From an uncultured virus (IMG/VR IMGVR_UViG_3300026095_000001) (Duplodnaviria; Heunggongvirae; Uroviricota; Caudoviricetes; Crassvirales): 20,000 nt of DNA. The notes under the pieces were generated by a model, which was not told where the DNA came from, ran no database searches, and saw only the letters and a list, made by a program, of their open reading frames with translations. This document shows, one piece after another, positions 2 to 19,660 of the stretch. Positions within the stretch are counted from its first letter, which is position 1. Every line of letters begins with the position of its first letter. A program made the position numbers and the translations under genes. Where the stretch lies: the IMG/VR virus record IMGVR_UViG_3300026095_000001; one strand, written 5' to 3'.

Positions 2-3000
2 GCCAATAGCTACATCATGGGTCACCAGTATTATAATCAACTGGTGCAGCAGGGGGTTCTTCCCGGCGATGCCGCGCACAAGGCCGACCAACTGATCACA
101 AAGAATCTTCTTACTGATATGGTCATGACGCCGTTGCAGATGGGGCTATTGAAAATGCCAATGGGGAACGCAGCAGCAAAAATCCTTGGATATGGCGCGG
201 AGGGGTTGACATCCGGCGTGCATTTCACCATTCAAGATTTCAACCAAAAGAACACCGATAATCCCGCGATGCACATCATTGATTATTTGCAAAGCGGCGA
301 TTGGAAGGAACCGATGTTAACGGGGGCTGTGCTTGGCACTATGCAAAAGGCGGCGGTCGATGGGCTACACAATTGGTCCGTGAATTCCGAGACAAAAAAC
401 ATGTTCAGCTATGGGCGAAAATACGGCACGGATGTGCGGAATAGTTTGCCCAGCAATGAGACGATTGCCAACAATGTATTGTCGGCCATTGAAATGAGAG
501 ATACCCCTGGAAGGCCACAGGAGCTAAAGGACTTAGTCGATGCCATGCAAGAAACCGGCGTATACCGGGAGCATGAGGCAAAGCGCGTCAAAGACATTAT
601 TGATGATGTCGTAGCGGCAAAAGCAATGACGCCGAAGTTCGGGAACCCACTCCAGCGAATGGCAGTTTTCAATGAATTGTTGAACATTCGAAGTGCCAAT
701 GAATTCAAAGAAAATGCAGGCGGAGAAGCGGGCGAAAAATATATCAATCAGCTGAATAAAGTTAGTGAAGCCAGGATACAGCGGATCATGGCAGATGAAG
801 AACCGTTGTATTTTATCAACGGCAACGAAACGAATAAGATACAACTTATGCGCGCGCTGGAGGAGAATCCTGAGTTGCTTTCCAGTAAAGCGGTGCGGAT
901 CGATGTTCGCAATGATCCTACTACGCAAAAACAAATAGCCGATTTAAAAACAAAGCAAGATGCCATTCAAAAGCAAAGCACAGCAAAGGCTGATGTTCGC
1001 CCTGCATCCAGCGATAGCGAAGCGGTGGGCGGACGAAATGAAGGCCAAAGGGCAATCGATAAAAAAGCTTCCGGAGAAGAAGCCAACGCCGACCAGAGGG
1101 TAGAAGAAAGTCGACACAGCCTCACCCCACATGATGAGCAGGGGATTGTTTCCGGACAAAACCAGCTCGGTCTATCAGATGAGGGCGTAGTAAAAGCCCA
1201 TGAACTAAAAGATGAAGTGCGAGCTAATAAAAACGTTACGAAGGTCATCTCCAGCGATTTAGCCAGGGCGAAAGAAACGGCGGACATTGTTGGCGGAGAC
1301 GACATCCCCGTCGAAACACGACCCGAATTGCGCTCATGGGACCTCAAAGATTTCAGCGGGATGAAAGACAAAGATTTCAAGGAAGTCTTAAAATGGTTCG
1401 GCGATCACCCAAATGAAGTAAAATACCAGGGGGATATCGAAAGCGCGAAAGGGAAAGAGCTGGGGGAAAGCTTGAATGATTATGCCAACAGAGCCATTAA
1501 AGCCCGTCAGGATGTGGAAGATAATGATCCCGGTTCATTCCTTATCAGCCACTCCAACAACATGAATGTATGGGAAGCGTATAAGGCTAATGGGCGGGTA
1601 TGGGATGAGCATGCTATTAAAGATTATATCTCTCGACCCTCTCCGGAGCCAGCAACGATTCAACCAACGGAAGCAGAAAATGCCACGGGTCACCAAGTTG
1701 TAAATGATATCGAGAGCGGCAAGATATCGGATGAACAATTAAAGGACACCGCTCGTCTATTCATAGAAGATGAAGCATACCAACCAGAGCCCGCTGATGC
1801 GATTTATGCACCTGATGCAGCAAAAGCCGGAAATAATGAACCTGATGAAGCATCTCGACAGTACTCAAAAAGAAAAGGTCCTGAAAAATATGTTCCGCCA
1901 TCTGGCGAAGGGGGCGAGCCTCCAAACCAAGATTCAGGCGCCGAACCCCTTCCCGAAAGTGGAGGCACCCCCGACGCGTCTAGGTTGACACGTAACGCTA
2001 AGCAGCTTCTAATAGCCGGTCGTACAGACGATCAGATTGTTACCTATCTCAAACGCAAAGGGCTGGGCGAAGAGGAGGCATTGGCAGCATTAGGTGCGGC
2101 AAAGGCAAATCCAATTGATGAGCAACAAAAAGCAAAGTCGATCCAGGAAGTAATGGATAAATACTTCGGCAAAGAGGATGACTGGCTAGGTAATAAAGAG
2201 CTGGCGAAGGTTAATTCGCAACAAACCACCAGAGAATACCATGAGGCTTTAAAAGAGTCCGTTAAGCAGGACAATACGCAGAAAGGTACATCCTGGAAGG
2301 ATGTAGACAAGGCCATACAGATTTATCTGGATAGTAAGCGAAATCCGGAACATATCAAGATGTACTATGATAAGCTCACACCTGATCAAAAAAAGATTGT
2401 TGATCTATCACAGCATTTAAATGAACGTCAAAAAGAAATTGCGGATGCCATTCGGGAGGAGTATGATGCGATTGGGCAACAGGCAAAAGACGCGTCTTTA
2501 ATTAAAGACGTTATCGATAACTATGTAGCCAGGGCCTGGGAGCTTAGGAATGGTAAACCAGCCACACAAGAGAACTTCAAATTCAATACGTCTAGTAAGC
2601 ACCAATTACAAAGAACACTAGAAACCATTTTGCAGGGTTACGCGGAAGGGATGAAGTTGAAAATTGAGGGGGCCACCAATAACCTTCACGTCTTAAAACA
2701 AGAAATCAACAACGTCATAGAGAATCGTAGGTTGTTGGAGCAGGGACTTTCGCTGAAATACGCCTCTGGAGAAAAATATCCCAGCGGTGGCCGCATAAAG
2801 AAAACATTGTTTTCTACAACGGCAGAACCAGGATATAAAAAAATAGAATCCGGCGCTTTTAAAAAGTGGGAATATGCTGGCAAATTAAAAGATTACCCTG
2901 AACAGGAAGCGGTCGCGCTAGGTCGGCGAAAGGATATTCTCGTTACAGAGGATGGAGTTGTAATGAAGAAAGCAGATGTTTATGCGCCCGAAGAGGTTGC

Positions 3001-4420
3001 AAAGTCGTTGAACAATATCCTCGCTAGTCGCAGGTCATCCAGCGGGTTCGTGAATGGGATTGCGGCTTTTAACAGCGCAGTGAAACAATCCATCTTATCG
3101 TATTCTGGATTTCACTTTATTGCCTTTACGCGGGCGCATGTCCTTAGTACCAAATTCAGCAAGCCTGCCGACGTCTCGCCGATCACGGCATATAAGGCGG
3201 GGCTGCAAATGTTGGCAGAACAGCATCCCATTGGTCAGAAGCTGATCCAGAAGGGGATGACACTTAACCGTCAACCGGATTGGGTTGAAGGAGTTGAGGC
3301 GCACAATACATGGCTAGGAAAGCAAATGGATAGGCTCTCCTTTACGAAGGCAGCGAAAGATAAGTTAATTGATCTCAATACGCAGTTTCATCACTATCTG
3401 TTTAATACCTACGGAGCCGGTCTGAAAATGTTTGACGGCGTAAACATGGTAAAGCAGGAGCTGGCAAAGAATCCAAATGCCAATCCGGATGAAGTATATG
3501 CCCGCGTGGCAAAACTAATGAATGATACGTACGGCGGTATCAACTGGGATCGGATGAGAGGGACCCACATGCAAAACCCGACCAACCGCCGAGTGGCCAG
3601 TATGTTGCTCCTGGCCCCCGATTGGACCGCGAGCAATTTACGAATGGCGCGAAAATTTTTTGCGCGGGGGGATGAAGGGGGATTGTACCGCAGAGCATGG
3701 GGGCGAGTCCTGCTACGGGGGGCTATGCTGACGACAGCAGCCAATGCAATTATGGCAGTTTGGGATGACAAAGATGATAACGGAAACGACCTCACCTGGA
3801 CAGAAGCCATGCAGCGAAGGTATTCCAAATCGTGGGAGTTGGGTAAGCTGCGCTCTACTATGATTGATATTACCCCTCTCTACCGTGCCATCGGTGGCGA
3901 CTCACAGAAACGTGCATACTTCAGCATTTTCGGAGCATACACCGATCCCATTAAGATGCTGACAAATCCAACTGATTTTTTGGAAAGCAAGGGATCATTT
4001 GTATCAAAGGTCGGCCTAGAAGCGCTCACTGGTCAGAATTGGCAACATCGAGAGTTTACTACACTCGATGAACTATTAGGCATGGATGATAAGGGAACTT
4101 TTACCAAAGCCATGCGAGAGCACAAGAAAGGAGAAATTAGCCCTACGACGGGAAAGCCCTATGTAAAGGATCAAGCAGGGCACGCAGCTGGCGAGGAAAA
4201 AGGCGGCAAATTAACTGGGGAATTAACAAAGTGGCCGCAAGGCGGCGCCCATCCAGTCACCTGGATGCAGGCGCCCGCATTCATCCTGAATGAAGTCCGA
4301 GGGATGATGCCTACGGCTGTTCAAAGCATGTGGCAAATCGCAGACGGGGAGAATGATATGGCCACGGGAATTTTGAATGCAGCCGGTTCAGGTGTGCTAA
4401 CCAATAAAGAAAAGAAATGA
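2..4420 (+). CDS. Giant virion/ejection (large polyvalent-type) protein, 5'-truncated, with an internal histidine phosphatase domain
   Basis: The frame is open from the window edge (gcc aat agc tac atc ATG17), so the protein is at least 1472 aa. It is largely helical with disordered linkers. The C-terminal region (..KVGLEALTGQNWQHREF..) resembles the C-termini of phage large polyvalent/internal virion proteins (LPD38-like, tentative). It lies next to the head genes. Confidence 0.7.
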   Translation, partial: ANSYIMGHQYYNQLVQQGVLPGDAAHKADQLITKNLLTDMVMTPLQMGLLKMPMGNAAAKILGYGAEGLTSGVHFTIQDFNQKNTDNPAMHIIDYLQSGDWKEPMLTGAVLGTMQKAAVDGLHNWSVNSETKNMFSYGRKYGTDVRNSLPSNETIANNVLSAIEMRDTPGRPQELKDLVDAMQETGVYREHEAKRVKDIIDDVVAAKAMTPKFGNPLQRMAVFNELLNIRSANEFKENAGGEAGEKYINQLNKVSEARIQRIMADEEPLYFINGNETNKIQLMRALEENPELLSSKAVRIDVRNDPTTQKQIADLKTKQDAIQKQSTAKADVRPASSDSEAVGGRNEGQRAIDKKASGEEANADQRVEESRHSLTPHDEQGIVSGQNQLGLSDEGVVKAHELKDEVRANKNVTKVISSDLARAKETADIVGGDDIPVETRPELRSWDLKDFSGMKDKDFKEVLKWFGDHPNEVKYQGDIESAKGKELGESLNDYANRAIKARQDVEDNDPGSFLISHSNNMNVWEAYKANGRVWDEHAIKDYISRPSPEPATIQPTEAENATGHQVVNDIESGKISDEQLKDTARLFIEDEAYQPEPADAIYAPDAAKAGNNEPDEASRQYSKRKGPEKYVPPSGEGGEPPNQDSGAEPLPESGGTPDASRLTRNAKQLLIAGRTDDQIVTYLKRKGLGEEEALAALGAAKANPIDEQQKAKSIQEVMDKYFGKEDDWLGNKELAKVNSQQTTREYHEALKESVKQDNTQKGTSWKDVDKAIQIYLDSKRNPEHIKMYYDKLTPDQKKIVDLSQHLNERQKEIADAIREEYDAIGQQAKDASLIKDVIDNYVARAWELRNGKPATQENFKFNTSSKHQLQRTLETILQGYAEGMKLKIEGATNNLHVLKQEINNVIENRRLLEQGLSLKYASGEKYPSGGRIKKTLFSTTAEPGYKKIESGAFKKWEYAGKLKDYPEQEAVALGRRKDILVTEDGVVMKKADVYAPEEVAKSLNNILASRRSSSGFVNGIAAFNSAVKQSILSYSGFHFIAFTRAHVLSTKFSKPADVSPITAYKAGLQMLAEQHPIGQKLIQKGMTLNRQPDWVEGVEAHNTWLGKQMDRLSFTKAAKDKLIDLNTQFHHYLFNTYGAGLKMFDGVNMVKQELAKNPNANPDEVYARVAKLMNDTYGGINWDRMRGTHMQNPTNRRVASMLLLAPDWTASNLRMARKFFARGDEGGLYRRAWGRVLLRGAMLTTAANAIMAVWDDKDDNGNDLTWTEAMQRRYSKSWELGKLRSTMIDITPLYRAIGGDSQKRAYFSIFGAYTDPIKMLTNPTDFLESKGSFVSKVGLEALTGQNWQHREFTTLDELLGMDDKGTFTKAMREHKKGEISPTTGKPYVKDQAGHAAGEEKGGKLTGELTKWPQGGAHPVTWMQAPAFILNEVRGMMPTAVQSMWQIADGENDMATGILNAAGSGVLTNKEKK
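960..1103 (+). CDS. Overprinted 47-aa basic small protein (+1 frame inside the giant gene): MPFKSKAQQRLMFALHPAIAKRWADEMKAKGQSIKKLPEKKPTPTRG
   Basis: Read by hand from ATG960 to TAG1103. It matches the pattern MPFKS.AQ.R.M.A.HP.IAKRW......LPE that I recognise from small stand-alone phage ORFs. There is an A at positions -3, -6, -12 and -13 from the ATG, the Bacteroidota initiation context. Confidence 0.75.
   Translation: MPFKSKAQQRLMFALHPAIAKRWADEMKAKGQSIKKLPEKKPTPTRG
1100..1670 (+). other. Histidine phosphatase (phosphoglycerate-mutase-like, branch 1) domain within the giant protein
   Basis: Motifs appear in canonical order: RHSLT (RHG motif; R366/H367 counted from ATG17), GQNQLGLSDEG..KA, VISSDLARAKETA (R417), PELRSWDLKDFSG, GESLNDYANR, FLISH (H512). 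Confidence 0.85.
1770..1988 (+). CDS. Possible second overprinted small protein (72 aa, +1 frame)
   Basis: Same +1 frame and same aagATG context as 960..1103. The sequence looks like amphipathic helices, while the main frame here is a P/E/G/D-rich linker. No family recognised. Confidence 0.4.
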   Translation: MKHTNQSPLMRFMHLMQQKPEIMNLMKHLDSTQKEKVLKNMFRHLAKGASLQTKIQAPNPFPKVEAPPTRLG

Positions 4421-5007
4421 CCTATACCAAAAAAGCATTTGAACAATGCCAATTCAATCCGTTCCAAGGGGGCAAGCTTATATCGGCGTATCCGGTTTTG
4501 GCAGAAATCGTTGCGCCGGAATGGGCGAATGATGCGCACATCGATCTGCTGTTGCGCTATACCATTATGGTGTATGATCCGAAGAGCCCGATAGCCATTG
4601 CGGAACGGGACCTCAACTACCGCAAAGGCATCGCCATGGAACTGCTGGTAGTCGAAGATGAGGGGCTGAAAGACGCGCTCTTCACCTGTACGTATCCCAT
4701 CCTGGTAGACCTGACCGTGAAGTATTTAGTCCGGTTCGTTCGAAGTAAAGAGTGGGCAGCGATCTGTGCCATCGAATTCAAGTTTTGGGAAGCCATCCGT
4801 CTGATCATGCAGCCCATCAGTAACGAGAAAGAGGATAAGGCGCAGCTCGATGCGGCGAATAAAAAGGAGGTCCTATCTGCCTCCATTGACGAAGGGCTCA
4901 ACAAGATCGACCAGTATTATCGTCGATTCTTTGGCGAAGATGAAGAATTGTTGAACAAGGCTAAGAAGCGGTTGACGCCCGAGTTGATGGCCGGTAAAAT
5001 TACGTAG
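4417..5007 (+). CDS. Hypothetical phage protein, possible terminase small subunit (by position)
   Basis: 196 aa and helical. ATGA overlap with the upstream stop; ends 1 nt before TerL. The function is inferred from position only. Confidence 0.6.
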   Translation: MTYTKKAFEQCQFNPFQGGKLISAYPVLAEIVAPEWANDAHIDLLLRYTIMVYDPKSPIAIAERDLNYRKGIAMELLVVEDEGLKDALFTCTYPILVDLTVKYLVRFVRSKEWAAICAIEFKFWEAIRLIMQPISNEKEDKAQLDAANKKEVLSASIDEGLNKIDQYYRRFFGEDEELLNKAKKRLTPELMAGKIT

Positions 5008-5008
5008 G

Positions 5009-7027
5009 ATGTATTATCCCATAGAAGGGGGCAGCGTCGAATTGATCCAGGACTACCCTTGTCAGCTACCGCCTGTAGGCTATGGTAAGAACCGGCTAAC
5101 GGGAGAGCTGGAATACATTGGGGTCATTAAGACCGATCCGAAGAAGGAAAAGCAGAAATGGCGCCGCTTCGAACTGCCGAAAGACTATGCGAAAAAAAAG
5201 AAAGTAGAGGAAGCTCGACAAAAGGAGGACCCGGATCATTTTAACCCGGACCTGGAGAAGCTGCGGTCGCAACATTGGAAGTATCGCCTATGCGGCTTGT
5301 GGATATATATTAACGGCACTCCGACTTATATCCCATGGTCCTACTACATGTACCTCCAATGGTGTCCGTTGGATGTGGGTTATCCAGCGTACCGGGATAC
5401 AGATCGACGATTCTATTACGTGTGGGAATATTGTGTAGAGGACCCGCGTTGTGCTGGGCTGGTAGACATCGAGCGGCGGCGCATGGGAAAAACCTATAAG
5501 AGTGGTTCCATCTTGTTAGATCGGACTTCTATTGCTGCTCACCATCATGGTGGCATACAAAGCAAAACAGGTATGGATGCCAAGGCGGTGTTTTTAAAGA
5601 CGGTCGTGCCCTTCTTTAAAAAGTATCCGGATTTCTTTCGTCCGATTTACGATCAATCGAAAGGGCTGTCTCCGTCTACGGAATTGCGCTTCTTTCAGAC
5701 CACTATTCGCGGAAAGCGGTCCGATATGTTGATTGATCAGCCCGAACTGGAAAGCTGGATTGATTGGGGCAGTGCGGAGCCGTTCCATTATGATGGCTCC
5801 AAGCTGAACACCTATATCATGGATGAGTACGGTAAGACGCAGGAGGTATCCGTATGTGACCGATGGGACGTGGTGCGCTTCTGTTTGGATCAGGATGGTG
5901 AATGGTGTGGCAAGGCGCTACTGACGTCGACGATCGAGGAAATGGAGAACGGGGGTACGGAAGCCAAGCAGATTTGGGAGCAAAGCGATCCAAAACAGCG
6001 CGATGCGAACGGGAGAACGAAGACAGGATTGTACCGCTTCTTTTTACCGGCCTTTGAAACCACCTATTTTGATGAATTTGGCATGCCCGAAACGGAACGC
6101 GCCAAGACCTATTATCTGAATCAACGCGCCGGATTAGCGAACGAACCCCGGCAGCTGTCGTCCATGATCCGAAAGAACCCTTTTACCATTGAGGAGGCCT
6201 TTCGGATAGACGGCGACCGGTGTTTGTACGATTCCCAGAAGCTCAATGAACAACTCGATTGGCTGTCCTGGAGAGAGAACTTAGTGGAACGGGGGAATTT
6301 CGAATGGGAGAACGGCGCGCGGTTTACGAAAGTGATCTGGAAGAAAATGGTGAACGGGCGCTTTCAAATGCCGACGTCCTTCCAGTTTGAAAATCCCAAC
6401 GCTGTCATTCAGACAGCCGCCGGATACGCGCCGAACAATACCGTACGGTTTGCTATGGGATGTGACCCGTTTAAGTACGATAAAGTGAAGGATCAGCGCA
6501 GATCGAAATGCGCCGCCTATGCCTTTCAAAAGTTCAACCCGAATGATGAATTTTTCTCAGATGCTTTTGTCTGCCGATATACCTACCGCGCATCGACGAC
6601 CGGGATGCAATACGAGGATGTGCTAAAAATGGCGTGGTATTTCGGCTGTCAAATCCTTTTTGAAAGCAACGTGGATAATTGGAAAGAATATTTCCGTAAT
6701 CCAGCATTCAGCAAAGTGAATTGCTCCGCCTTCTTAATGACGTTGCCGGGAGAGACAGAACCAGGCCTATACAGTGATGGCGGTGGGCGCACCCATCAGC
6801 TGATCTGCGATCTCACCGAAGACTACATTGAAAAATATATCAAAAAGGTATTTTTCAAAGAGCTCATCAGCGATTGGCTGATTTTTAACCTGGACCGAAC
6901 AACCGAATTCGATGACTCCATGGGCAGCGGCCTTGCTCTTATTGGGGCACGGAAGAAGCTATACCGCACCAACAATGAACTTCATCGGGAAGTAACCGAC
7001 TTTATTAAAATTTATACCGCACTCTAA
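5009..7027 (+). CDS. terL: Terminase large subunit
   Basis: Walker A-like RRMGKT, Walker B YIMDEYGK, coupling motif LLTST, and RNase H-like nuclease motifs GCDP, ILFESN and FDDSMG. Directly upstream of the portal-like gene. Confidence 0.93.
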   Translation: MYYPIEGGSVELIQDYPCQLPPVGYGKNRLTGELEYIGVIKTDPKKEKQKWRRFELPKDYAKKKKVEEARQKEDPDHFNPDLEKLRSQHWKYRLCGLWIYINGTPTYIPWSYYMYLQWCPLDVGYPAYRDTDRRFYYVWEYCVEDPRCAGLVDIERRRMGKTYKSGSILLDRTSIAAHHHGGIQSKTGMDAKAVFLKTVVPFFKKYPDFFRPIYDQSKGLSPSTELRFFQTTIRGKRSDMLIDQPELESWIDWGSAEPFHYDGSKLNTYIMDEYGKTQEVSVCDRWDVVRFCLDQDGEWCGKALLTSTIEEMENGGTEAKQIWEQSDPKQRDANGRTKTGLYRFFLPAFETTYFDEFGMPETERAKTYYLNQRAGLANEPRQLSSMIRKNPFTIEEAFRIDGDRCLYDSQKLNEQLDWLSWRENLVERGNFEWENGARFTKVIWKKMVNGRFQMPTSFQFENPNAVIQTAAGYAPNNTVRFAMGCDPFKYDKVKDQRRSKCAAYAFQKFNPNDEFFSDAFVCRYTYRASTTGMQYEDVLKMAWYFGCQILFESNVDNWKEYFRNPAFSKVNCSAFLMTLPGETEPGLYSDGGGRTHQLICDLTEDYIEKYIKKVFFKELISDWLIFNLDRTTEFDDSMGSGLALIGARKKLYRTNNELHREVTDFIKIYTAL

Positions 7028-9396
7028 TGGCAGAAGAACAAGCAATGCAATCATACCCTCCTCACGACATTGATCCGAAGAAGAAAGACAAAGCCTGGGG
7101 GCTTCAATACGCGAAGGCTTGTTGGTATGACTGGAATTATACGATACCACGTACCGTATTCTACAACGCCGCCGATAAGTACGAGGAGCTTAGGTTGTAC
7201 GCGATCGGAAAGCAGCCTATCAATAAGTACAAAAAGTTGATGGGGGTAGATGAACAGACAAACCAAACTTATCTCAATCTGGATTGGACCGTGCGTCCCT
7301 TCATTGCACAGAAGCGCGATGTGGCCATTAGCAAGATGCTGCTGCAAGGGCATTCGGTCATAGCGACGCCTATTGATCCGACCGCTAAGGCGGAGTTAGA
7401 TCAGTTTTTCGCGGAAGCAAAGGCAAAGATCGCCATGCGGCAAGTGGCGCAGCAGACAAATCCGGAACTAGCACAGCATCCCCTGCTACAGCCCAATGCC
7501 GGGGAGCCCATGGATTGGGAAGAGATGCAAATGCGCGTCGATTTTGGGGAGCAATTCAACCGGGCGAAAGATGCAGAAGAGGCGATCCAATTGGGGTTCT
7601 ACGAGAATGACCTGGAGCTGTTCGAACAAAAGATATACGAAGATTTGTTTGATCTTGGTGTGGCCGGATATAAGGAATGGCTTGGAGACGACAACAAACC
7701 CAAATTCAGAAACGTCAATCCGGAAGCCGTCGTCACCAATTACTGCAAATGGAAGAACTTTAAGGACCTTATCCATGCAGGTGAAGTGATCGATGTTTCG
7801 CTCATCGATTTGGCGACCATGGAAAACGAGGACGGCACGACGACTTTTACGCAGGAAGAAATTGAAAGTATGAAAAACGCCGTGGCGGGGAAATGGAGCA
7901 ATCCTTCCATGGTAGGGCGGAGCACCAACTATTTCAAAGGCTATGATAAGTTCAAAGTAAAAGTGCTTGATCTCGAATTCTTTTCGTATAACATTCTCAA
8001 CTTCAAGGAATGGAAAGACAAACGTGGAAACACCCGATTCAAATTCAATGATGCGCTTCCCGACAAGCGGGATAACGATAAAACTAAGTACGACCAGCGA
8101 CGCGTGAAGGTGGTTTATTGTATCAAATGGGTTGTAGGGACCGACTACGCGTATGATTTTCACCTCAAGCAAGATATGAAGCGCAGTGTGGACCCCAAGA
8201 AAAAAGCGGAGACCTCGCTAAGCTATCGTTTTATCGCTCCCAATTTCTATGAAATGCGCGCCTTGGGCATGATGGAACGCCTTATGCCACTAATTGATGA
8301 ATATCAAATCGATATTTATAAGATACAGAACATTTCTAACCGCATTGTGCCGAATGGCTGGTGGATTGATTTAGATGCACTCGAAAACGTAGCATTGAAC
8401 AAGGGTGGGGAAAATATGAAACCGTTGGACCTGATTCAAATGTTCATGGAGACGGGGGTTTTGGTCGGGCGGTCGCAAGGGGTAATGGGTGACAACGTCA
8501 ACTACAAACCCATTATTCCCATACAAAACAGCATTGCATCCGAGATCGTGGCACTCTTTCAAAAGATGCAGATCACGATGAATCAAATACAGGCGATGAT
8601 CGGCCTCAATGACATTACGGATGCCAGCACACCCAGTCCCAAGCTGTTGAATGGCGTGGCGACGATGATGGATCAGGGGACGAATAATTCGCTTTATCCC
8701 ATGATCCTGGCTAAGAAATACCTCATGACCCAGCTGGCCAATGATGTCCTGATTCGTATTCAACAGGGGCTACGGAAGGGAGGCGTAAGCGGATATGCAC
8801 CGGCGCTGAATTCGAATACCCTTAAGTTCATGGAGATATCCAGCGCCCTCAGCCTGCGGGACTACGGGATCATGCTGGATGAGAAGCCTACCGATGAGCA
8901 AAAGCAAATGCTCATGCAGCAGTTGCAATTCGATATACAAAACGGATTTCTGGATACGTCCGATGCGTTTTACATTATCAACGTATATAATGTTAAGCAG
9001 GCACAACAGATACTTTCGTATAGGGCAAAACGCAATAAACAGGAGATGGAACAGGCCAAGCAGGCAGCAGCTATGCAGCAGCAGCAGGCGCAAGCGCAGC
9101 AAACAATGATGGCCGGGCAGGCACAGCAACAGCTCGAAGCACTGAAACACCACAATGCGATGGAATTGCAGATGCTAAAGGGTCAGCAAGCCATGGAAGA
9201 ACTGAAGCTGAAAATGGGTGTCCAGGCGCAAGCGGCGCAGCAAGCCAATCAGGTTAAACTGGCGGGCCATGTTATCCAGGCCAATACCCAGGAGAATATG
9301 CAGAAGCGAGAAATGGGGATGCCGGAGGAACAATTGCAGGGAGGACCGCCTGCACCGGATATAGAACGCAACATTCCGGAGGAGGCCATGACCTGA
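7027..9396 (+). CDS. Portal protein (podovirus type, with a Q/A/M-rich C-terminal coiled coil)
   Basis: 789 aa, coupled to TerL by a TAATG overlap. The N-terminus (K..WGLQYAKA..W) and the long Q-rich helical C-terminus fit large podoviral portals. Confidence 0.85.
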   Translation: MAEEQAMQSYPPHDIDPKKKDKAWGLQYAKACWYDWNYTIPRTVFYNAADKYEELRLYAIGKQPINKYKKLMGVDEQTNQTYLNLDWTVRPFIAQKRDVAISKMLLQGHSVIATPIDPTAKAELDQFFAEAKAKIAMRQVAQQTNPELAQHPLLQPNAGEPMDWEEMQMRVDFGEQFNRAKDAEEAIQLGFYENDLELFEQKIYEDLFDLGVAGYKEWLGDDNKPKFRNVNPEAVVTNYCKWKNFKDLIHAGEVIDVSLIDLATMENEDGTTTFTQEEIESMKNAVAGKWSNPSMVGRSTNYFKGYDKFKVKVLDLEFFSYNILNFKEWKDKRGNTRFKFNDALPDKRDNDKTKYDQRRVKVVYCIKWVVGTDYAYDFHLKQDMKRSVDPKKKAETSLSYRFIAPNFYEMRALGMMERLMPLIDEYQIDIYKIQNISNRIVPNGWWIDLDALENVALNKGGENMKPLDLIQMFMETGVLVGRSQGVMGDNVNYKPIIPIQNSIASEIVALFQKMQITMNQIQAMIGLNDITDASTPSPKLLNGVATMMDQGTNNSLYPMILAKKYLMTQLANDVLIRIQQGLRKGGVSGYAPALNSNTLKFMEISSALSLRDYGIMLDEKPTDEQKQMLMQQLQFDIQNGFLDTSDAFYIINVYNVKQAQQILSYRAKRNKQEMEQAKQAAAMQQQQAQAQQTMMAGQAQQQLEALKHHNAMELQMLKGQQAMEELKLKMGVQAQAAQQANQVKLAGHVIQANTQENMQKREMGMPEEQLQGGPPAPDIERNIPEEAMT

Positions 9397-10978: not shown

Positions 10979-12328
10979 ATGGCAGCAGGTGCACAGGGCA
11001 CGATGAACAAAGCGTTCGTCAGCGCTATATCATTCCTTGATCAGAGGGACATCAATCCAAATTTGCTCGACCAAAGCCGTGATGCGGAATTTACCGATAT
11101 CATGAAGCTGGTGGGGCGCTACAAAGAAGCAAAGGTCCCCATCTATAACTATTTTGTCAACAACGATGTATTCGCCGATGGGGTAGTCTCCTCGGTGTCC
11201 AGCGGATACGGCACGGCCATCATGACGGTGGTCCTAACGTCTGCCAGCTCTGGATATGTACGCGTGGGAGACCTAGTCCGAAGCTCGAATACTAACATGA
11301 TAGGGCAGCAGGCCTGGGTGAAGACTGTAACGAGTGTATCTGGCGTGGATACAATTGTCTTGCAGTCTGTCAACAACAACCCATTGTACGCCGTTGCTAC
11401 TGATATCCTGGCCTTTTCTTCTAATGCATTTGGTGAAAAGTCGGATGCGCCGGTAAACCGTAAGTACGGCGTTACGCGGTACATCAACCAAGTGCAGATT
11501 TTCCGGGAAGTGGATGAGATCACGGATATCCAAAAGGTTTCCAAGATCGAAGTCTCCATCAATGGGCAACCGTATTACACACCGTTGAACCACATTTACA
11601 AGCTGAAATCCCTGAATGGGTTTATTTCAGCGCAGATGATCGCGGGCGTACAGTCAACCACTTTGTATGCTGATAGCAACCCTTATCTCGCGGATGCCAA
11701 TGGTAACCCCATTCAGACAACCATGGGGCTGGATCAATACGTCACCACCTATGGGATTTCTGGGCAGGTAGCTACGCTTGGCACCGTCGGATTCACCGAT
11801 GTTAACACGATGATCGATAACTTCATCGCCAACAAAGCGCCTCATCAACAGATGGGCTTCTGCGGTAGCCGCGCGAAACGACCCTGGGATGTCTGGTTGA
11901 AGAACCTTGGCTCTTCCGGCGTTACTTCAGTACGTCTGATCATCGATGGCCGTTCGGTTGATATGGAAGTAGATCACTTCCGGTACGGCAATTTTGAATT
12001 CGACTTCATTTACTTGCCGATCATTGACCATCCCCAGCTTTTTGGGCCTACGGTTGTACCGGATATCAACGGTTCAATCTACTGGGTCCCTAAGGATAAA
12101 ATACGGGTAGAAGGCGGAGGTATGGAAGCCCGCTTGCAAATTCGTTATCTGCCCAAGCCAATGGCGGGCGGAAACAGCATGAGCAACGGGATCATTACCG
12201 AATGGCATACCGGCGCCTTGGCTCCCATCCCCACGAACAGTGTCATGGTATGGCATACCGATTGGTATACCAACCAAGGCCTGGAAGCGCTTGGGCTCAA
12301 GCATTTTCAAAAATTCCGTGTTGTATAA
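10979..12328 (+). CDS. Major capsid protein (HK97 fold expected)
   Basis: 449 aa, follows the scaffold, has an AT-rich leader and a terminator after it. Capsid-like motifs: SNAFGEKS, NQVQIFRE..EIT, TTMGLDQYV. Confidence 0.85.
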   Translation: MAAGAQGTMNKAFVSAISFLDQRDINPNLLDQSRDAEFTDIMKLVGRYKEAKVPIYNYFVNNDVFADGVVSSVSSGYGTAIMTVVLTSASSGYVRVGDLVRSSNTNMIGQQAWVKTVTSVSGVDTIVLQSVNNNPLYAVATDILAFSSNAFGEKSDAPVNRKYGVTRYINQVQIFREVDEITDIQKVSKIEVSINGQPYYTPLNHIYKLKSLNGFISAQMIAGVQSTTLYADSNPYLADANGNPIQTTMGLDQYVTTYGISGQVATLGTVGFTDVNTMIDNFIANKAPHQQMGFCGSRAKRPWDVWLKNLGSSGVTSVRLIIDGRSVDMEVDHFRYGNFEFDFIYLPIIDHPQLFGPTVVPDINGSIYWVPKDKIRVEGGGMEARLQIRYLPKPMAGGNSMSNGIITEWHTGALAPIPTNSVMVWHTDWYTNQGLEALGLKHFQKFRVV

Positions 12329-12337
12329 GCATATATC

Positions 12338-12365
12338 AGCAGCCCCGTAAGGCTGCTATTTTTCT
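12338..12365 (+). terminator. Rho-independent terminator after the capsid gene
   Basis: AGCAGCC-ccgtaa-GGCTGCT followed by ATTTTTCT. Confidence 0.8.
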
Positions 12366-12383
12366 CACTTTAACCAAAATTCA

Positions 12384-13271
12384 ATGTTACGCGCTGTCAA
12401 AGGCTACAACGATCTATCCGAAGGGCTCCGCAAAAAGCTCAATGAGGAGCGGACGCTTGTCGGCAAATATGCTCGGTACAAATTTTACATCGCCCGCAAA
12501 AATCCCGATGGGCAACACAAGCCTGGCGAGGAGTACATCTATCCGGCCTTGTATACACTCACGCCTGTCACCTTTTCTATCGTGGAAGATAGGGTACCCA
12601 AACAGATTGGGCTCTATGATGGGTATGAGGTACATAATGACGAACAGGAAGTACGTTTCCGGCGTGTCAATTTGCGGGACCGGGACGAAGGTATATTAAC
12701 CCTTGACATGAGTGTGCCGGAACACGTGGAGGTGTTCGAATACCTGGAGCTACACCCAAAGAACGAAAATGGATTTTTCCGGGATAAGAACATCCCGGCC
12801 ATGTTCTGTCGGACCGATGAGTTGAAGGAAGCCAAGCAACGCCTTCGCACCAAAGAATTGCGGGGACAGGCTATGGTAGTGGCAACGCGTATGAACGAAC
12901 AGGAGGTGAGAAATTTCGCTGCTGCCATGAACTGGAATGAGCTGGAGGATCACGAAATCCTGAAAGATAGGATGATCGAGATTGCGGACAAGGACCCTGA
13001 GTTCTTTCGCAAGTTCGTTGATGATCCCGCTAATGAATACAGGGCGACAGTCCGCCGCGCCATTGATGCGAATATTATTTCCTGGATTCCACTGGAAAGC
13101 AAGTTCACCTGGACATCCAATGGAAGTGTCATAGCGGTCCTCGATCGACAGGGCGCGGCGAAGTTCCTGGAAGGCATGGCGGAATGGCTCATCACTTCCA
13201 AGAACGGCCCAGAAACCTATAAGAAATTGAAAACGCTTCTTTCTGGAAAAGAGGTGGTTCATAAAGAATGA
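12384..13271 (+). CDS. Head-associated hypothetical protein (post-capsid gene)
   Basis: 295 aa with a good A-rich start context. It occupies the slot directly after the capsid gene; no function recognised. Confidence 0.8.
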   Translation: MLRAVKGYNDLSEGLRKKLNEERTLVGKYARYKFYIARKNPDGQHKPGEEYIYPALYTLTPVTFSIVEDRVPKQIGLYDGYEVHNDEQEVRFRRVNLRDRDEGILTLDMSVPEHVEVFEYLELHPKNENGFFRDKNIPAMFCRTDELKEAKQRLRTKELRGQAMVVATRMNEQEVRNFAAAMNWNELEDHEILKDRMIEIADKDPEFFRKFVDDPANEYRATVRRAIDANIISWIPLESKFTWTSNGSVIAVLDRQGAAKFLEGMAEWLITSKNGPETYKKLKTLLSGKEVVHKE

Positions 13272-13296
13272 TGATTCGGTTGAATTTTGGTTAGAG

Positions 13297-13330
13297 TCTC
13301 GCCGATGTCTTCACACTGGCGGGAATTTAT
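13297..13330 (+). terminator. Stem-loop / weak terminator after the 295-aa gene
   Basis: TCTCGCCG-A-TGT-cttc-ACA-C-TGGCGGGA followed by ATTTAT. Two G-U pairs form only on the + strand. Confidence 0.55.
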
Positions 13331-13343
13331 CGAAAACAGACTT

Positions 13344-14585
13344 ATGCCCGATCTATCGCAATACATATCGATTGGGGTGACGTTGGATAAGAGCCAGCCG
13401 ACGCCCACGCTCCGGATAATTGATAACTCCAATTATCCCATGGGTGTCGCGCAGACCATCGCTGGAATCCTTTCTGTCACACAGCCGGATAACATAACCG
13501 TGGCGAATACCAACTTTTCCAGCCCCGACATCTATTGGGATAGCGGCGCGTTGGTGCCAGCAGACCTGGAGCTCCGTCTTGACAATTCCAACACTTTTCA
13601 ACGCGGGGGAAGCGGCTACCGGATCACCTATACGGTACGGGCGCCTGGGTATTCCGATACGGTGTTGATGAAGGTTTTTCCATTGACCTATACGCCGCCC
13701 AGCATTGTCATTTCCAATAACTTTGACATCTTCACGCCTGATCTCAGTGTGCAAGATGCAACCGGATACACACAATCGTCGCAAGATTTCGTTTCGGTTG
13801 CCAGGAGCTGGAGCGCCGATATCATTTCCGTGTTAGGCGTGACGCAAACCATTTCAGGAACAGGGCAAGTATTCGATTTGAATTACTTGGGTAGCTACTA
13901 CGATTCCCAATATGATATTACGCTCACCATCTTTCCGCAATGGCGGCTTCAGGGGGTATACAATTTCGTGACCATTATCGATGATCTCGTCGATACCCTC
14001 ACGCTCTATGCGCAAATCCCTCCGACATTATCCGCATTGCAAGCATCTTTGGCAGCACTAAAAACACAACTGGATGCGGCTGTCTGCGATTGCAATACCT
14101 ATATCATTTTATTTGATCGGTATAATCTGGCTTCCTCTATATATGCTCAGCTGGTAGCGAGGGGACAAAGCGGATCGCTGGCTGGACTCGATACGTATGT
14201 CTATCAGCTGGAGAAGATATTTAACAACAACGTCAACCCGACCTACGTCAATACCAATACGCTCATACCCCCCTACGACTGGGGCACCGGCAGCGGATCG
14301 GTGGCCTGGACGAATATTACTGGAAAACCGAATACCGTTACCGTCGAGTGGCTAGTGGGTGATGTCGGGTTCCCCGGACCTGGATCGACTACGTTTACGA
14401 ACGCCAATCTGACCAACGTGCCTGTAGGCAGGGTGTATGTATTCAGAAACGGCCTGCCGCAATTCTCCTCTAATCCAGGTGATGGGGACACGTACTATTC
14501 CAAGAATACGGCAGACAATTTTCTCACTTTTTCATTAGCGCTTGCGTCCAGTGAAAAGATTATCGTCCTAATACTACCATTGTGA
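13344..14585 (+). CDS. Virion structural / tail-associated protein (413 aa)
   Basis: Start reassigned to ATG13344 (MPDLSQY), downstream of the hairpin. Beta-rich and T/S/V-rich, with the fibre-type motif WTNITGKP and a C-terminal VYVFRNG..Q module. Confidence 0.7.
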   Translation: MPDLSQYISIGVTLDKSQPTPTLRIIDNSNYPMGVAQTIAGILSVTQPDNITVANTNFSSPDIYWDSGALVPADLELRLDNSNTFQRGGSGYRITYTVRAPGYSDTVLMKVFPLTYTPPSIVISNNFDIFTPDLSVQDATGYTQSSQDFVSVARSWSADIISVLGVTQTISGTGQVFDLNYLGSYYDSQYDITLTIFPQWRLQGVYNFVTIIDDLVDTLTLYAQIPPTLSALQASLAALKTQLDAAVCDCNTYIILFDRYNLASSIYAQLVARGQSGSLAGLDTYVYQLEKIFNNNVNPTYVNTNTLIPPYDWGTGSGSVAWTNITGKPNTVTVEWLVGDVGFPGPGSTTFTNANLTNVPVGRVYVFRNGLPQFSSNPGDGDTYYSKNTADNFLTFSLALASSEKIIVLILPL

Positions 14586-17837: not shown

Positions 17838-18092
17838 ATGAATACATCTTTTTTTTCGGAACTCGTTGCCCGACTCGGCAAGAGGAACCCAAAATTTTTC
17901 GATTACATCCAAGTGGCCGCGCTTGTACTGGGATCCCTGTCGGCTGCTTTCAACTTCATCGATGAGAGGGGCACCATGTTACCTCCCTGGCTAACCTGGA
18001 TAAAGAGCACTACTGTCATGATTACCAGCGCGGTGACGGCCATTGTCGCTCAATTGCCAAACAAAGACGTTAACGAGTCAACCAAAAAATAA
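17838..18092 (+). CDS. Putative 2-TM holin
   Basis: Amphipathic N-terminus (..ARL...PKFF..IQ), two TM helices and a basic C-terminus. ATG17838 is preferred; ATG17817 is the alternative start. Confidence 0.65.
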   Translation: MNTSFFSELVARLGKRNPKFFDYIQVAALVLGSLSAAFNFIDERGTMLPPWLTWIKSTTVMITSAVTAIVAQLPNKDVNESTKK

Positions 18093-18095
18093 TAT

Positions 18096-18554
18096 ATGAG
18101 TCTTAAAAGTTTTATCGATGGCATATGGTCGGCCATTAAAGGCCTATTCCATAAGCTGGAACAGGAAGAAAAGAAGCTCCTCCCCATCGTGATCACGGTG
18201 GTGCAGAACATCAAGAATTTCACGGATAGTCCTGTCGCGGATGTCATTACGGCCCTCATTCCAGGTGATGTGGATGACAGGATCAGAGAGAGGCTGGAAG
18301 ATTATCTGCCCAAAATCTTGATGGAGCTGAACATGCTCAATACCTGTCAGGCGCTTCCGGATGCCAATGCACAGCTGCAATGCATTTTACAAAACCTGAA
18401 GTTATCCTCAGACTCGGCGAAGGATATCTATTATCATGGGTTGGCTTCGTTGATCCTGACGGACCTGTCGGATGGAAAACTTTCCTGGAGTGATTGCGTG
18501 GGGATCGCAGAGTACTATTACAAAAACATTTGGAAGGAGCAGCCGGCAGCGTAA
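18096..18554 (+). CDS. Hypothetical protein (152 aa, amphipathic N-terminal helix)
   Basis: A-rich start context and contiguous with the lysis genes; no family recognised. Confidence 0.7.
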   Translation: MSLKSFIDGIWSAIKGLFHKLEQEEKKLLPIVITVVQNIKNFTDSPVADVITALIPGDVDDRIRERLEDYLPKILMELNMLNTCQALPDANAQLQCILQNLKLSSDSAKDIYYHGLASLILTDLSDGKLSWSDCVGIAEYYYKNIWKEQPAA

Positions 18555-18557
18555 CTA

Positions 18558-18842
18558 TTATATAGCGTTGATATCTTTCATTTGTTGCAGGCGAGAAATA
18601 ACTCCGTCGCGCATTTCTTTCCCATATCCTTCGAATACATTTTCATTGAGCAAATGTATGACCCGATCATGGGGCATTCCATTTTGGACCAAATCCTTAT
18701 AAAGTGTGATCCAGCATGGAACCATATTGTTATCATGTAGTTTTTCGAAAATAATGGCAAGCGGAATGCCTTGGCTATGATACATAGCTCCTATGCCGTT
18801 CATAACGGGCTTCCCGTCCTTAGTGATGCCGACTTGCTTCAT
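18558..18842 (-). CDS. Small inverted accessory gene resembling the 'LYDTYGFP' helical segment of alanyl-tRNA synthetase
   Basis: 94 aa filling the gap between + strand genes. NGIGAMYHSQGIPLAIIFEKLHDNNMVPCW aligns by eye with the AlaRS pattern G..AF.LYDTYGFP.DL......E.N..VD. Confidence 0.6.
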   Translation of the reverse strand: MKQVGITKDGKPVMNGIGAMYHSQGIPLAIIFEKLHDNNMVPCWITLYKDLVQNGMPHDRVIHLLNENVFEGYGKEMRDGVISRLQQMKDINAI

Positions 18843-18862
18843 GAGTTACAGGTTTTATGATG

Positions 18863-18943
18863 AAAAAGAAGCCAACCCTTTCACATAGTCAAGTTGGCTT
18901 CTGATAAAAAGAACTAATCCTATTGCTAGGCGTCTCAAAGATA
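18863..18943 (-). ncRNA. Candidate sRNA unit 1 (promoter + ~70-nt RNA + terminator)
   Basis: Minus strand: TATCTTTG at 18943-18936 with TTG 18 nt upstream; CCTA-GCAA-TAGG hairpin; 10-bp terminator stem 18902-18893/18876-18867 followed by a U-tract. Confidence 0.55.
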
Positions 18944-18959
18944 AGGAGTTCCCTCGAAT

Positions 18960-19044
18960 AACAAGAAAGCCCCATTGAAATGGGGCTCGATATCTCTAAC
19001 CAAAGTAACGGTCTCTTGCTGAGACAATACTTATGGCAAATATA
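18960..19044 (-). ncRNA. Candidate sRNA unit 2
   Basis: Minus strand: TATATTTG at 19044-19037; GTCTC-AGCAA-GAGAC hairpin; single-stranded GTTACTTTGGTTAGAG; 8-bp terminator stem 18987-18980/18975-18968 followed by TTCTTGTT. Confidence 0.6.
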
Positions 19045-19061
19045 ATATGATTAAATGACAC

Positions 19062-19151
19062 AAAAGGCGGGAGCTGTAGAAACAGCCCCCTAGTTTTAAA
19101 CTATAGACCCGTTGCGCTTATGAAGCAGCCCGGTCTGAGGCTGTAAATATA
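19062..19151 (-). ncRNA. Candidate sRNA unit 3
   Basis: Minus strand: TATATTTA at 19151-19144 with TTTG 18 nt upstream. Terminator GGGGGCTGT-ttct-ACAGCTCCC-gccTTTT, whose G-U pair works only on the minus strand. Confidence 0.5.
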
Positions 19152-19161
19152 TATAAAAAGG

Positions 19162-19626
19162 ATGAAAGACAAAATAACAGCTGAACGCATCGAACAATTG
19201 CACCCCGATGTACGCGAGCGCTTCACAGATTTCATCAATGAAGTAGAACAAACACTGGGTGTCACAATTCGGATGGAGCCGCCGCTGCGGACGTTCGCCG
19301 AACAACAGGCCATTTGGGACAGAGGGCGGACCATGCCGGGGAAGATCGTAACCTGGGCTCCTCCTGGCAGCTCGTATCATAACTATGGGCTGGCCGCTGA
19401 TCTTTGCCCTTTCAAAGCAGACTACAGTGACCTGGATTGGAACTATGATTTCAGCAAGTGGAAATCCATTGCTACAAAGCATGGCCTTACCTGGGGCGGC
19501 GACTTTCCCAAAGGGAAGACAGACCCGGATCATTTCCAATATACGGCGGGCCACAACTGGCGCGACTTGCTGCATAAATACGAGACGAAAGACTTCCTAC
19601 CGGGGACGGAGTATGTGAAGCTGTGA
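19162..19626 (+). CDS. Endolysin, M15 family (L-Ala-D-Glu peptidase, CwlK/Ply500-like)
   Basis: Zn-peptidase motifs R.FAEQ....RGRT.PGKIVT.A.PG.SYHNYGLAAD and WGGDF....DPDHFQ. Confidence 0.92.
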   Translation: MKDKITAERIEQLHPDVRERFTDFINEVEQTLGVTIRMEPPLRTFAEQQAIWDRGRTMPGKIVTWAPPGSSYHNYGLAADLCPFKADYSDLDWNYDFSKWKSIATKHGLTWGGDFPKGKTDPDHFQYTAGHNWRDLLHKYETKDFLPGTEYVKL

Positions 19627-19660
19627 AATAAAAGAAGGTCCCCGAAATGGGGACCTTCTT
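19626..19660. terminator. Bidirectional terminator between the endolysin and the integrase
   Basis: Perfect 12-bp inverted repeat AAGAAGGTCCCC-gaaat-GGGGACCTTCTT (19632-19660) between convergent genes. The U-tract is stronger on the minus strand. Confidence 0.85.

Follow-up and report, generated by a model that had tools for sequence, protein, structure and literature searches.

We have analysed a 20,000-nt stretch of DNA from an uncultured Crassvirales virus (IMG/VR record IMGVR_UViG_3300026095_000001), here called the window, and we find that one of its genes is bracketed by a pair of short complementary sequences. The gene, which we name X, is the downstream neighbour of the gene for the major capsid protein (MCP); one complementary arm reaches its start codon and the other lies just past its stop codon. 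Judged by sequence comparison, this complementarity is genuine and belongs to a group of uncultured soil and water phages: the two arms of a lineage match each other in particular, and covarying changes preserve the match in 35 loci. From these comparisons and from modelled folds we propose, with moderate confidence, that the arms pair in cis as a 5'-3' RNA helix that masks the start region of X, which has no Shine-Dalgarno (SD) sequence, and thereby caps its translation.

Covarying arms on either side of gene X

In the window, positions 12371-12384 (TAACCAAAATTCAA), whose final base is the A of the X start codon (ATG 12384), are matched by their exact reverse complement at 13280-13293 (TTGAATTTTGGTTA), 8 nt past the stop codon (TGA 13269-13271). 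RNAduplex extends the pairing to 19 consecutive pairs (12367-12385 with 13279-13297; -23.5 kcal/mol), two of which are U-G (U12370-G13294 and U12385-G13279). A preliminary description of the window, made from its letters alone, had reported both the exact repeat and its 19-bp extension with two G-U pairs, and our calculation reproduces them. A correction applies to the 3' UTR of the same description: what separates X from the next gene is a spacer of 72 nt (13272-13343). The features concerned are as follows.

12384..13271, + strand: gene X, 295 aa, no functional family match
12367..12385, + strand: leader arm (arm 1), A/C-rich, abutting and overlapping the start codon of gene X
13279..13297, + strand: trailer arm (arm 2), U/G-rich, complementary to arm 1, 7-8 nt past the stop codon

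The window by itself is borderline evidence and does not decide the question (about p 0.07), since 21 of 300 dinucleotide shuffles of it also contain one or more perfect 14-nt inverted repeats within 1200 nt. With as many as 2 mismatches allowed, the 14-mer itself has 3 occurrences where 0.29 are expected, and none of 200 shuffles gets to 3. Given that the window alone does not settle the matter, the case rests on conservation in relatives.

Relatives were collected with both proteins. Searches based on X gave 3 viral loci and at least 7 metagenome loci, and searches based on the MCP, which is better conserved than X, gave 50 viral and 4 genome loci. An X homologue lies downstream of the MCP gene, on the same strand, in 38 of these 54 MCP-anchored loci. 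Most of the 16 loci without X end within or just past the MCP gene; in L035 and L070, where at least 1 kb downstream of the MCP gene is present, X has no match. Left out of all counts were four loci in which X runs off the contig, two in which X is short or broken (L039 and L054), and L008. The last (L008 493-1041) resembles L006 upstream of X and across the first 175 X residues and is then unrelated, with an early stop that cuts X down to 182 aa, perhaps because the assembly is chimeric or the gene is disrupted. The final set comprises 35 distinct loci with a complete X, including the window, L005 and L006, and the X proteins of the other 34 are 24-72% identical to that of the window. Among GenBank phages, blastn with 10979-14585 and tblastn with X, the MCP or the X of L069 gave no match, and tblastn with the X of L075 gave non-significant matches only (E 4-9). 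The record G001 has no match to the region.

A leader-trailer duplex is found in all 35 loci (-8.3 to -25.1 kcal/mol). Because a MAFFT alignment of the whole region in 7 close loci left shifted, indel-bearing arms out of register, we relied on alignment-free duplex energies, pairing the last 33 nt up to the AUG with a segment made of the stop codon and the 32 nt beyond it; these windows were confined to the arms, as duplexes of the whole spacer are confounded by G+C-rich hairpin stems. Cognate arms average -17.0 kcal/mol versus -11.55 (sd 4.17) for 1190 non-cognate pairs, and none of 20000 random re-pairings equals the observed total, a statistic that ignores phylogeny. When the trailer is reverse-complemented, pairing with the leader falls to only -2.6 kcal/mol. 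In the six closest lineages, with arm windows set by hand, the cognate arm is the best partner in 6/6 columns and 5/6 rows of the energy matrix, and the true pairing is the best of 720 permutations. The preliminary description had proposed to look for covariation of both arms in homologous loci, and such covariation is what we find in all 35. The lineage-specific changes are matched between the arms, indels included, as illustrated by AAAATTCAA in the window, AAAATCAA in L005, AAAAATCAAAA in L006, and ACTATAACC... in L003 and L007. Examples of the arms are given below.

Window: leader TAACCAAAATTCAA; trailer its exact reverse complement
L005: leader CTAACCAAAATCAA; trailer TTGATTTTGGTTAG
L006: leader ACCAAAAATCAAAA; trailer TTTTGATTTTTGGT
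L003: leader ACTATAACCAAAAAA; trailer TTTTTTGGTTATAGT
L031: leader TCAACAATCAAAAAAC; trailer GTTTTTTGATTGTTGA

Across the 35 loci the helix has a median of 17 pairs in total and a maximum of 23, with a median longest uninterrupted run of 13 (at least 9 in 32 loci). Its position is likewise held: the 3' end of the leader arm falls between -13 and +2 (median -4) relative to the A of the AUG, and the trailer arm begins at -2 to +21 nt (median +2) counted from the stop codon, and no more than 9 nt past it in 32/35. As a within-genome control, we computed the same duplex for the start and stop flanks of other genes. By this measure X ranks first of 16 genes in the window and second of 99 in the related genome G002; the other high scorers are irregular G+C-rich duplexes.

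These comparisons also bear on the simplest alternative, a chance match between an A-rich leader and a T-rich spacer. The shuffles of the window speak for it, and the two compositions are themselves complementary, with even non-cognate arms averaging well below zero. The cross-lineage cognate test refutes it: no re-pairing matches the cognate total and the helix is kept in every locus down to 24% X identity, so that we regard the probability of chance as negligible.

Proposed RNA pairing over the start region of X

The mismatches that the helix tolerates are informative about its chemistry and strand. In the best ungapped segments we count 16 U-G, 2 A-C and 10 other mismatches. A minus-strand RNA would tolerate A-C, yet U-G dominates, which indicates + strand RNA; in line with this, the + strand duplex is steadier by more than 1 kcal in 21/35 loci and the - strand duplex in 8/35. 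The preliminary description had suggested RNA rather than DNA pairing from the two G-U pairs of the window, and the U-G-biased mismatches together with the 35 covarying loci support that view. From the sequences compared, the evidence points to pairing that acts as + strand RNA rather than as DNA.

A feature of the DNA itself, either a pair of recombinase sites bounding an invertible segment or a site for a DNA-binding protein, is suggested by the fact that the inverted repeats flank a complete gene. We consider it very improbable. A DNA site or recombination repeat would show no U-G bias, and the arms, which can be as little as 8-12 nt long, vary from lineage to lineage. Gene order and orientation are constant in every X locus, with every tblastn match to X lying on the MCP strand and downstream of the MCP gene, and no recombinase family turned up in Pfam and PHROG scans of 17 window open reading frames (ORFs). 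The preliminary description had also advised a check for inversion. Of the sequencing runs listed with the stretch, four are DNA metagenomes and none is RNA, and we examined the four as contigs: two of them bridge both arms collinearly and none has an inversion joint, with the proviso that contigs can hide rare inverted forms.

No SD motif precedes X, and SD-like motifs are found upstream of 0/16 genes in the window, 7/99 in G002 and 4/100 in a second related genome, G003; leaders in all three are A-rich and G-poor. Among cultured relatives of the large terminase (TerL), 86/89 records are Bacteroidota phages (Flavobacterium 68, Cellulophaga 15, Tenacibaculum 2, Maribacter 1), the other 3 being uncultured records. 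Based on the SD-poor, A-rich leaders and these TerL relatives, the host is likely a Bacteroidota-like, SD-blind bacterium. In Flavobacterium johnsoniae, according to the cited portion of one study, both the secondary structure around the start codon and adenines lying upstream tune initiation (PMC6847099). Given this dependence on start-region structure, a helix of 10-20 bp over -20..+2 should strongly inhibit initiation.

To ask how the helix would fare within the complete message, we folded the cistron as an RNA of ~1.05 kb; these folds are thermodynamic and ignore ribosomes and kinetics. The helix is part of the minimum free energy (MFE) fold of the whole cistron in 28/35 loci, and in the ensemble at least 7 leader nucleotides are paired to the trailer at P>0.5 in 31/35. 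For -20..+3 the unpaired probability averages 0.64 in an RNA cut off ahead of the stop codon and 0.30 in one that includes the trailer, and accessibility drops with the trailer in 33/35 loci. In such thermodynamic models of the whole cistron, then, the helix is in the ensemble.

The Bacteroidota -7 promoter consensus is TAnnTTTG. Taking this consensus and the inferred host, we find the motif within 150 nt upstream of X in 0/35 loci, which fits expression of X by read-through of HP1, the first of two terminator-like hairpins that flank the cistron. The same motif before arm 2 occurs in 2/35 loci only; it is not conserved there, and we rejected arm 2 as a -7 promoter.

Together these observations suggest the following course of events. 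The late transcript would read through HP1 after the capsid gene and into X. While X is being transcribed the leader would stay open and ribosomes would load; once arm 2, some 900 nt away and beside the second terminator-like hairpin, has been made, arm 1 would pair with it. The closed helix would cover about -20 to +2 and block further initiation, and output of X from each transcript would be a limited burst, far below that of the capsid protein. Start and stop codons would be brought side by side, and terminating ribosomes that reach arm 2 may transiently re-open the helix. The preliminary description had offered self-closure of the mRNA, an RNase III site and a small RNA (sRNA) derived from the 3' UTR as alternatives. 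Self-closure fits best, given the leader arm near the AUG and the drop in accessibility; the present results do not separate the other two from it.

The juxtaposition of start and stop codons also permits a more elaborate device than a simple clamp, in which a terminating ribosome melts the helix and licenses one new initiation. The message would then keep up the number of ribosomes loaded during transcription and close permanently when traffic stops, in effect a closed loop that counts ribosomes on an SD-less mRNA. We consider this version improbable. A different use of the same geometry is that the helix protects the message by sealing the flanks of the X cistron against ribonucleases, or promotes re-initiation through the proximity of stop and start. 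Start and stop do lie at the same helix end, the AUG a median of 4 nt away from it and the stop codon a median of 2 nt, and in Bacillus subtilis hbs mRNA a 14-bp pairing that joins the 5' UTR to the 3' UTR modulates RNase Y cleavage, according to the part of the report cited (PMC5737220). Against a positive role, the helix covers the region that ribosomes need in an SD-less system, and net activation would require active unwinding. Protection or re-initiation is in our estimate unlikely, and masking of the start region is the reading that we carry forward.

Hairpins, neighbouring genes and the X protein

The window comprises a block of phage head and tail genes, in which the X cistron lies between two hairpins. 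The other features of the block are listed here.

5009-7027: large terminase (TerL)
7027-9396: portal
10979..12328, + strand: MCP, 449 aa (Pfam SU10_MCP, E 5.9e-06), upstream neighbour of X
12338..12357, + strand: hairpin HP1, terminator-like (terminator-scan match), followed by ATTTTT at 12358-12363
13297..13324, + strand: hairpin HP2, directly adjoining arm 2, loop region TGTCTTCAC at 13306-13314
13325..13343, + strand: short leader of the next gene, open to local pairing with arm 2 when the spacer is folded alone
13344..14585, + strand: next gene, 413 aa, start set by homology
19162-19626: endolysin

The window MCP is 80-82% identical to its homologues in G002 and G003. The next gene is taken to start at ATG 13344, since tblastn alignments of a query starting there reach back to its residue 1, and DNA conservation sets in at the same ATG; the starts TTG 13287 and ATG 13305 of the ORF list were rejected on this ground. 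Scanned from 13305, this ORF has no Pfam or PHROG match. Two further observations concern the ends of the block. Right after the endolysin gene lies a 12-nt perfect local inverted repeat (19632-19660), probably its terminator hairpin. Upstream of the terminase, window 17-4420 is a 1467-aa ORF with a His_Phos_1 (histidine phosphatase) domain at residues 366-516 and no family elsewhere in it in Pfam and PHROG scans; G002 has a 1713-aa ORF in the equivalent place.

Both hairpins fold well. HP1 reaches -12.3 kcal/mol (z -5.05), with 0/200 shuffles as good, and HP2 reaches -13.7 kcal/mol (z -2.6), with 5/200 as good; the + strand hairpin that the preliminary description had placed directly after the downstream copy is thus borne out. 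Their setting is constant throughout the 35-locus listing: MCP, HP1, an unstructured A/C-rich leader containing arm 1, X, arm 2, HP2 with a T-run, and the next gene, with arm 2, HP2 and the T-run all present. Six loci have an inserted gene in the MCP position just before HP1. Per-locus folds place a strong G+C-rich hairpin, usually with a T-run, at the HP1 position in nearly all 35 loci; L029, as read from the fold listing, has a weaker and different fold there, and in L027 a tRNA-Met gene (4029-4100) replaces HP1 between the capsid gene and X while arm complementarity is kept.

HP2 is similarly held. Its loop TGTCTTCAC is kept in 6/7 aligned close relatives as the stems vary, L006 having TGTCTTAAC instead. 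In 22 distant loci (for example, L034 5513-5586) HP2 is two-tiered, with an outer stem, a UGG-containing internal loop, a 5-bp inner stem, an NUUN loop and then the T-run; compensatory changes occur in 8/10 pairs, and the UGG and a closing C-G are invariant despite the pair changes. In many distant loci a further small hairpin, whose loop is often GAAA, stands between arm 2 and HP2. By this comparative evidence HP2 is a conserved structure in its own right. It is not a listed family: Rfam 15 gives 0 matches at E<=1 in window 12200-13500 and 0 at the gathering score in 18 related loci. Other accounts of the spacer were considered and set aside. Folded alone, the spacer 13272-13343 reaches -21.6 kcal/mol with arm 2 pairing to 13325-13340 and extending HP2, and a switch of arm 2 between the X leader and the next gene's leader could be imagined; only the window and a small number of close relatives show this arrangement, which does not hold in general. 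For a small ORF across the HP2 loop, neither the start codon nor the frame is conserved. A minus-strand ORF (12750-13262) as the cause of arm 2 was set aside, as L001 by eye has no ATG after the equivalent site.

Two further explanations involve arm 2 and HP2. In the first, the helix, possibly stacked on HP2, would be a processing or decay site for a double-strand nuclease such as RNase III, whose cut would excise or inactivate the X cistron and leave a capsid mRNA ending in HP1. Stalks flanking rRNA work much like such a nuclease-cut leader-trailer duplex, and RNase III needs about two helical turns (at least 20 bp). In the window the 19-bp helix abuts HP2 without a spacer and about 26 bp could stack, and a nuclease site would draw on the same covariation and strand evidence as masking does. 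The icaR mRNA offers a precedent in which 5'-3' pairing both blocks initiation and makes an RNase III substrate, as described in the cited excerpt (PMC3868564). Somewhat against this explanation, an uninterrupted run of at least 20 bp occurs in 1/35 loci, the medians being 13 for the run and 17 for all pairs; in many distant loci a spacer or the extra small hairpin parts arm 2 from HP2, and stacking would be possible in the window clade only. On balance we hold a nuclease site to be possible at a low probability.

In the second, arm 2, HP2 and the T-run would be an sRNA released from the 3' end of the X transcript, with a single-stranded seed that would act in trans on the X leader and on other phage leaders bearing that motif. 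The layout of an unpaired seed, a stable hairpin and a T-run is that of a 3'-end-derived sRNA. Moreover, the leader motif of X in G003, ACTATAACCA(A), stands directly before the ATG of at least 4 other genes, and the window spacer holds a third exact copy of CTCTAACCAAA (18994-19004). On the other side, the motif does not recur generally: the core 8-mer is not enriched (12 matches in G002 and 8 in G003, its reversed control giving 11 and 6). The additional G002 match (at 9259) and the third window copy have different gene contexts, and the latter falls in an insertion that G002 lacks. The scarcity of TAnnTTTG before arm 2 is somewhat against an independently transcribed sRNA, and X's own leader is the best and only constant partner in every lineage. 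We therefore find an sRNA doubtful, at quite a low probability. The loci on which it draws are described here for their own sake. The G003 motif sites (G003 being represented by L018-L021) lie at 17902, 21507 and 52156 on the + strand and 74053 on the - strand, and could be a shared leader or targets of arm 2 in trans; the genes that they precede include an HNH/NUMOD4 homing endonuclease, between terminase and portal, and a DUF7873 protein. Window 18555-19161 is inserted sequence when compared with G002, in which the endolysin comes straight after the counterpart of ORF 18096-18554. The insertion contains a minus-strand ORF (18558-18842, 94 aa) and, in a spacer of 320 nt, several hairpins, and the third CTCTAACCAAA copy is placed just after a hairpin, like arm 1.

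The X protein has no Pfam match, no PHROG function and no PDB sequence match. Its AlphaFold model has a pLDDT of 87.8 and matches in fold only uncharacterized proteins from crAss-like and Bacteroidota phages, those named being from Tenacibaculum phage Gundel_1, Cellulophaga phage phi14:2 and crAss-like viruses. Gundel_1 ORF 4958-5725, guessed to be the top BFVD match, was rejected, as its probability against the X profile is 0.2%. Foldseek of the model against PDB gave nothing at E<=0.001. VIA-align gives two weak partial likenesses, both below the level of a fold call: residues 145-217 to a SAP domain (Z 7.1, 73 aligned) and residues 215-291 to the RecA C-terminal domain (Z 7.2, 61 aligned). 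Because these parts of the model weakly resemble nucleic-acid-binding folds, we considered, as an improbable addition to the ribosome-counting loop, that X itself might bind the arm 2-HP2 module, which would give autogenous control.

Remote X homologues are also found after the MCP gene in cultured phages, namely phi38:1 gp094 (hhalign 95.5%) and Elemovirus gp25 (91%); both are annotated as hypothetical, with neighbours annotated as virion structural. In Elemovirus a 9-bp A/U complement lies over the AUG (-7.5 kcal/mol, the best of six genes), and a TAnnTTTG motif stands between the hairpin and the gene. As a separate observation, Flavobacterium phage elemoE (L076) has the same cassette after two successive genes (7530-7595 and 8370-8428): a terminator hairpin, a T-run and then (C/T)GTATCTTTGCAAA, which contains TAnnTTTG. 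The cassette looks like a repeated terminator-promoter unit.

Several results weigh against masking of the X start region by the helix. In the full energy matrix the cognate arm is the best partner in just 8/35 rows and 13/35 columns; it is seldom the single best because related lineages share arm motifs. In G003, where the trailer arm begins 19 nt past the stop codon, X falls outside the five strongest genes under the fixed 32-nt trailer window. The U-G events are not independent and come by eye to roughly 7-8 separate ones. The wobbles are polarized, with 38 of U(leader)-G(trailer) against 6 of the opposite kind, and a G-poor leader alone biases this count; as far as the sequences go, the G-poor leader explains the polarity of the wobbles but not the scarcity of A-C. 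The MFE fold is without the helix in 7/35 loci, and in four (L060, L066, L072 and L075) fewer than 7 leader nucleotides are paired in the ensemble. Cellulophaga phage phi38:1 has both hairpins and no helix (-0.6 kcal/mol), from which it follows that the helix is not required by every family member. Lastly, masking of the start region leaves the conservation of the HP2 loop unexplained. In the light of phi38:1, and on the loci compared, the helix is a trait of the uncultured clade and not of the whole protein family.

Known leader-trailer pairings and significance

Pairing between the leader and trailer of a single mRNA is known in bacteria from a handful of single-gene cases, namely icaR, hok and hbs, to which the phage element would add one. 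In Staphylococcus aureus icaR mRNA, a motif in the 3' UTR pairs with the message's own start region and hinders initiation, as the cited excerpt describes it (PMC3868564). As in icaR, in all 35 loci here a stretch past the stop codon is complementary to the start region of the same gene. According to the same excerpt, the icaR motif targets the SD, whereas the target here is an SD-less, A/C-rich leader, and icaR is a chromosomal regulator gene with a long 3' UTR, the duplex being a demonstrated RNase III substrate. The trailer arm of X, in contrast, lies 0-21 nt after the stop codon, in a polycistronic phage late region and between two terminator-like hairpins. The two elements are not homologous.

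Covariation within its family supports the hok structure. In the hok mRNA of plasmid R1, the tac/fbi pairing is a long-distance 5'-3' fold-back that keeps the message translationally inactive, as far as the cited passages go (PMC9841398), and it is only this closed-mRNA principle that the phage element shares. In the same passages hok codes for a small toxin, has the antisense partner Sok and becomes active through trimming of its 3' end, and its fbi pairs with the extreme 5' end so that the SD is masked indirectly. By contrast, X encodes a 295-aa protein of the phage head and tail module, and we found no antisense gene. The pairing in B. subtilis hbs, at 14 bp, is similar in size and likewise joins leader and trailer of one mRNA; unlike the helix proposed here, in the portion of the report cited it modulates RNase Y cleavage and hence stability, and the start site is not masked (PMC5737220).

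Searches of one open-access library listed no phage precedent for a leader-trailer mRNA helix. In RNA phages such as MS2, long-distance pairing controls ribosome access. A long-range pseudoknot does so in E. coli L20 mRNA, in the part of the source cited (PMC1888825). MS2 and L20 differ from X in genome, in pairing partners and in logic, with opening through translation of an upstream cistron or control through binding of a repressor protein. The nearest phage comparison is with the local inhibitory hairpins in the start regions of the T4 genes e, soc, 49 and I-TevI, as presented in the cited excerpt (PMC3014915). There the helices are local, and transcription from a promoter within the hairpin avoids them, whereas the partner of the X leader lies ~900 nt downstream, past the stop codon.

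What sets the present element apart is its occurrence in a double-stranded DNA phage, on an SD-less start region of the Bacteroidota kind, with covariation across 35 lineages in which X falls to 24% identity. For annotation, short complementary stretches that flank cistrons merit a systematic search. If the proposed masking is true, it shows a way in which a phage, with 10-20 nt on each side of a gene, can keep one of its late proteins at a dose much lower than its capsid protein, and the X cistron would be a compact natural test bed for the gating of initiation by mRNA structure in SD-less bacteria.

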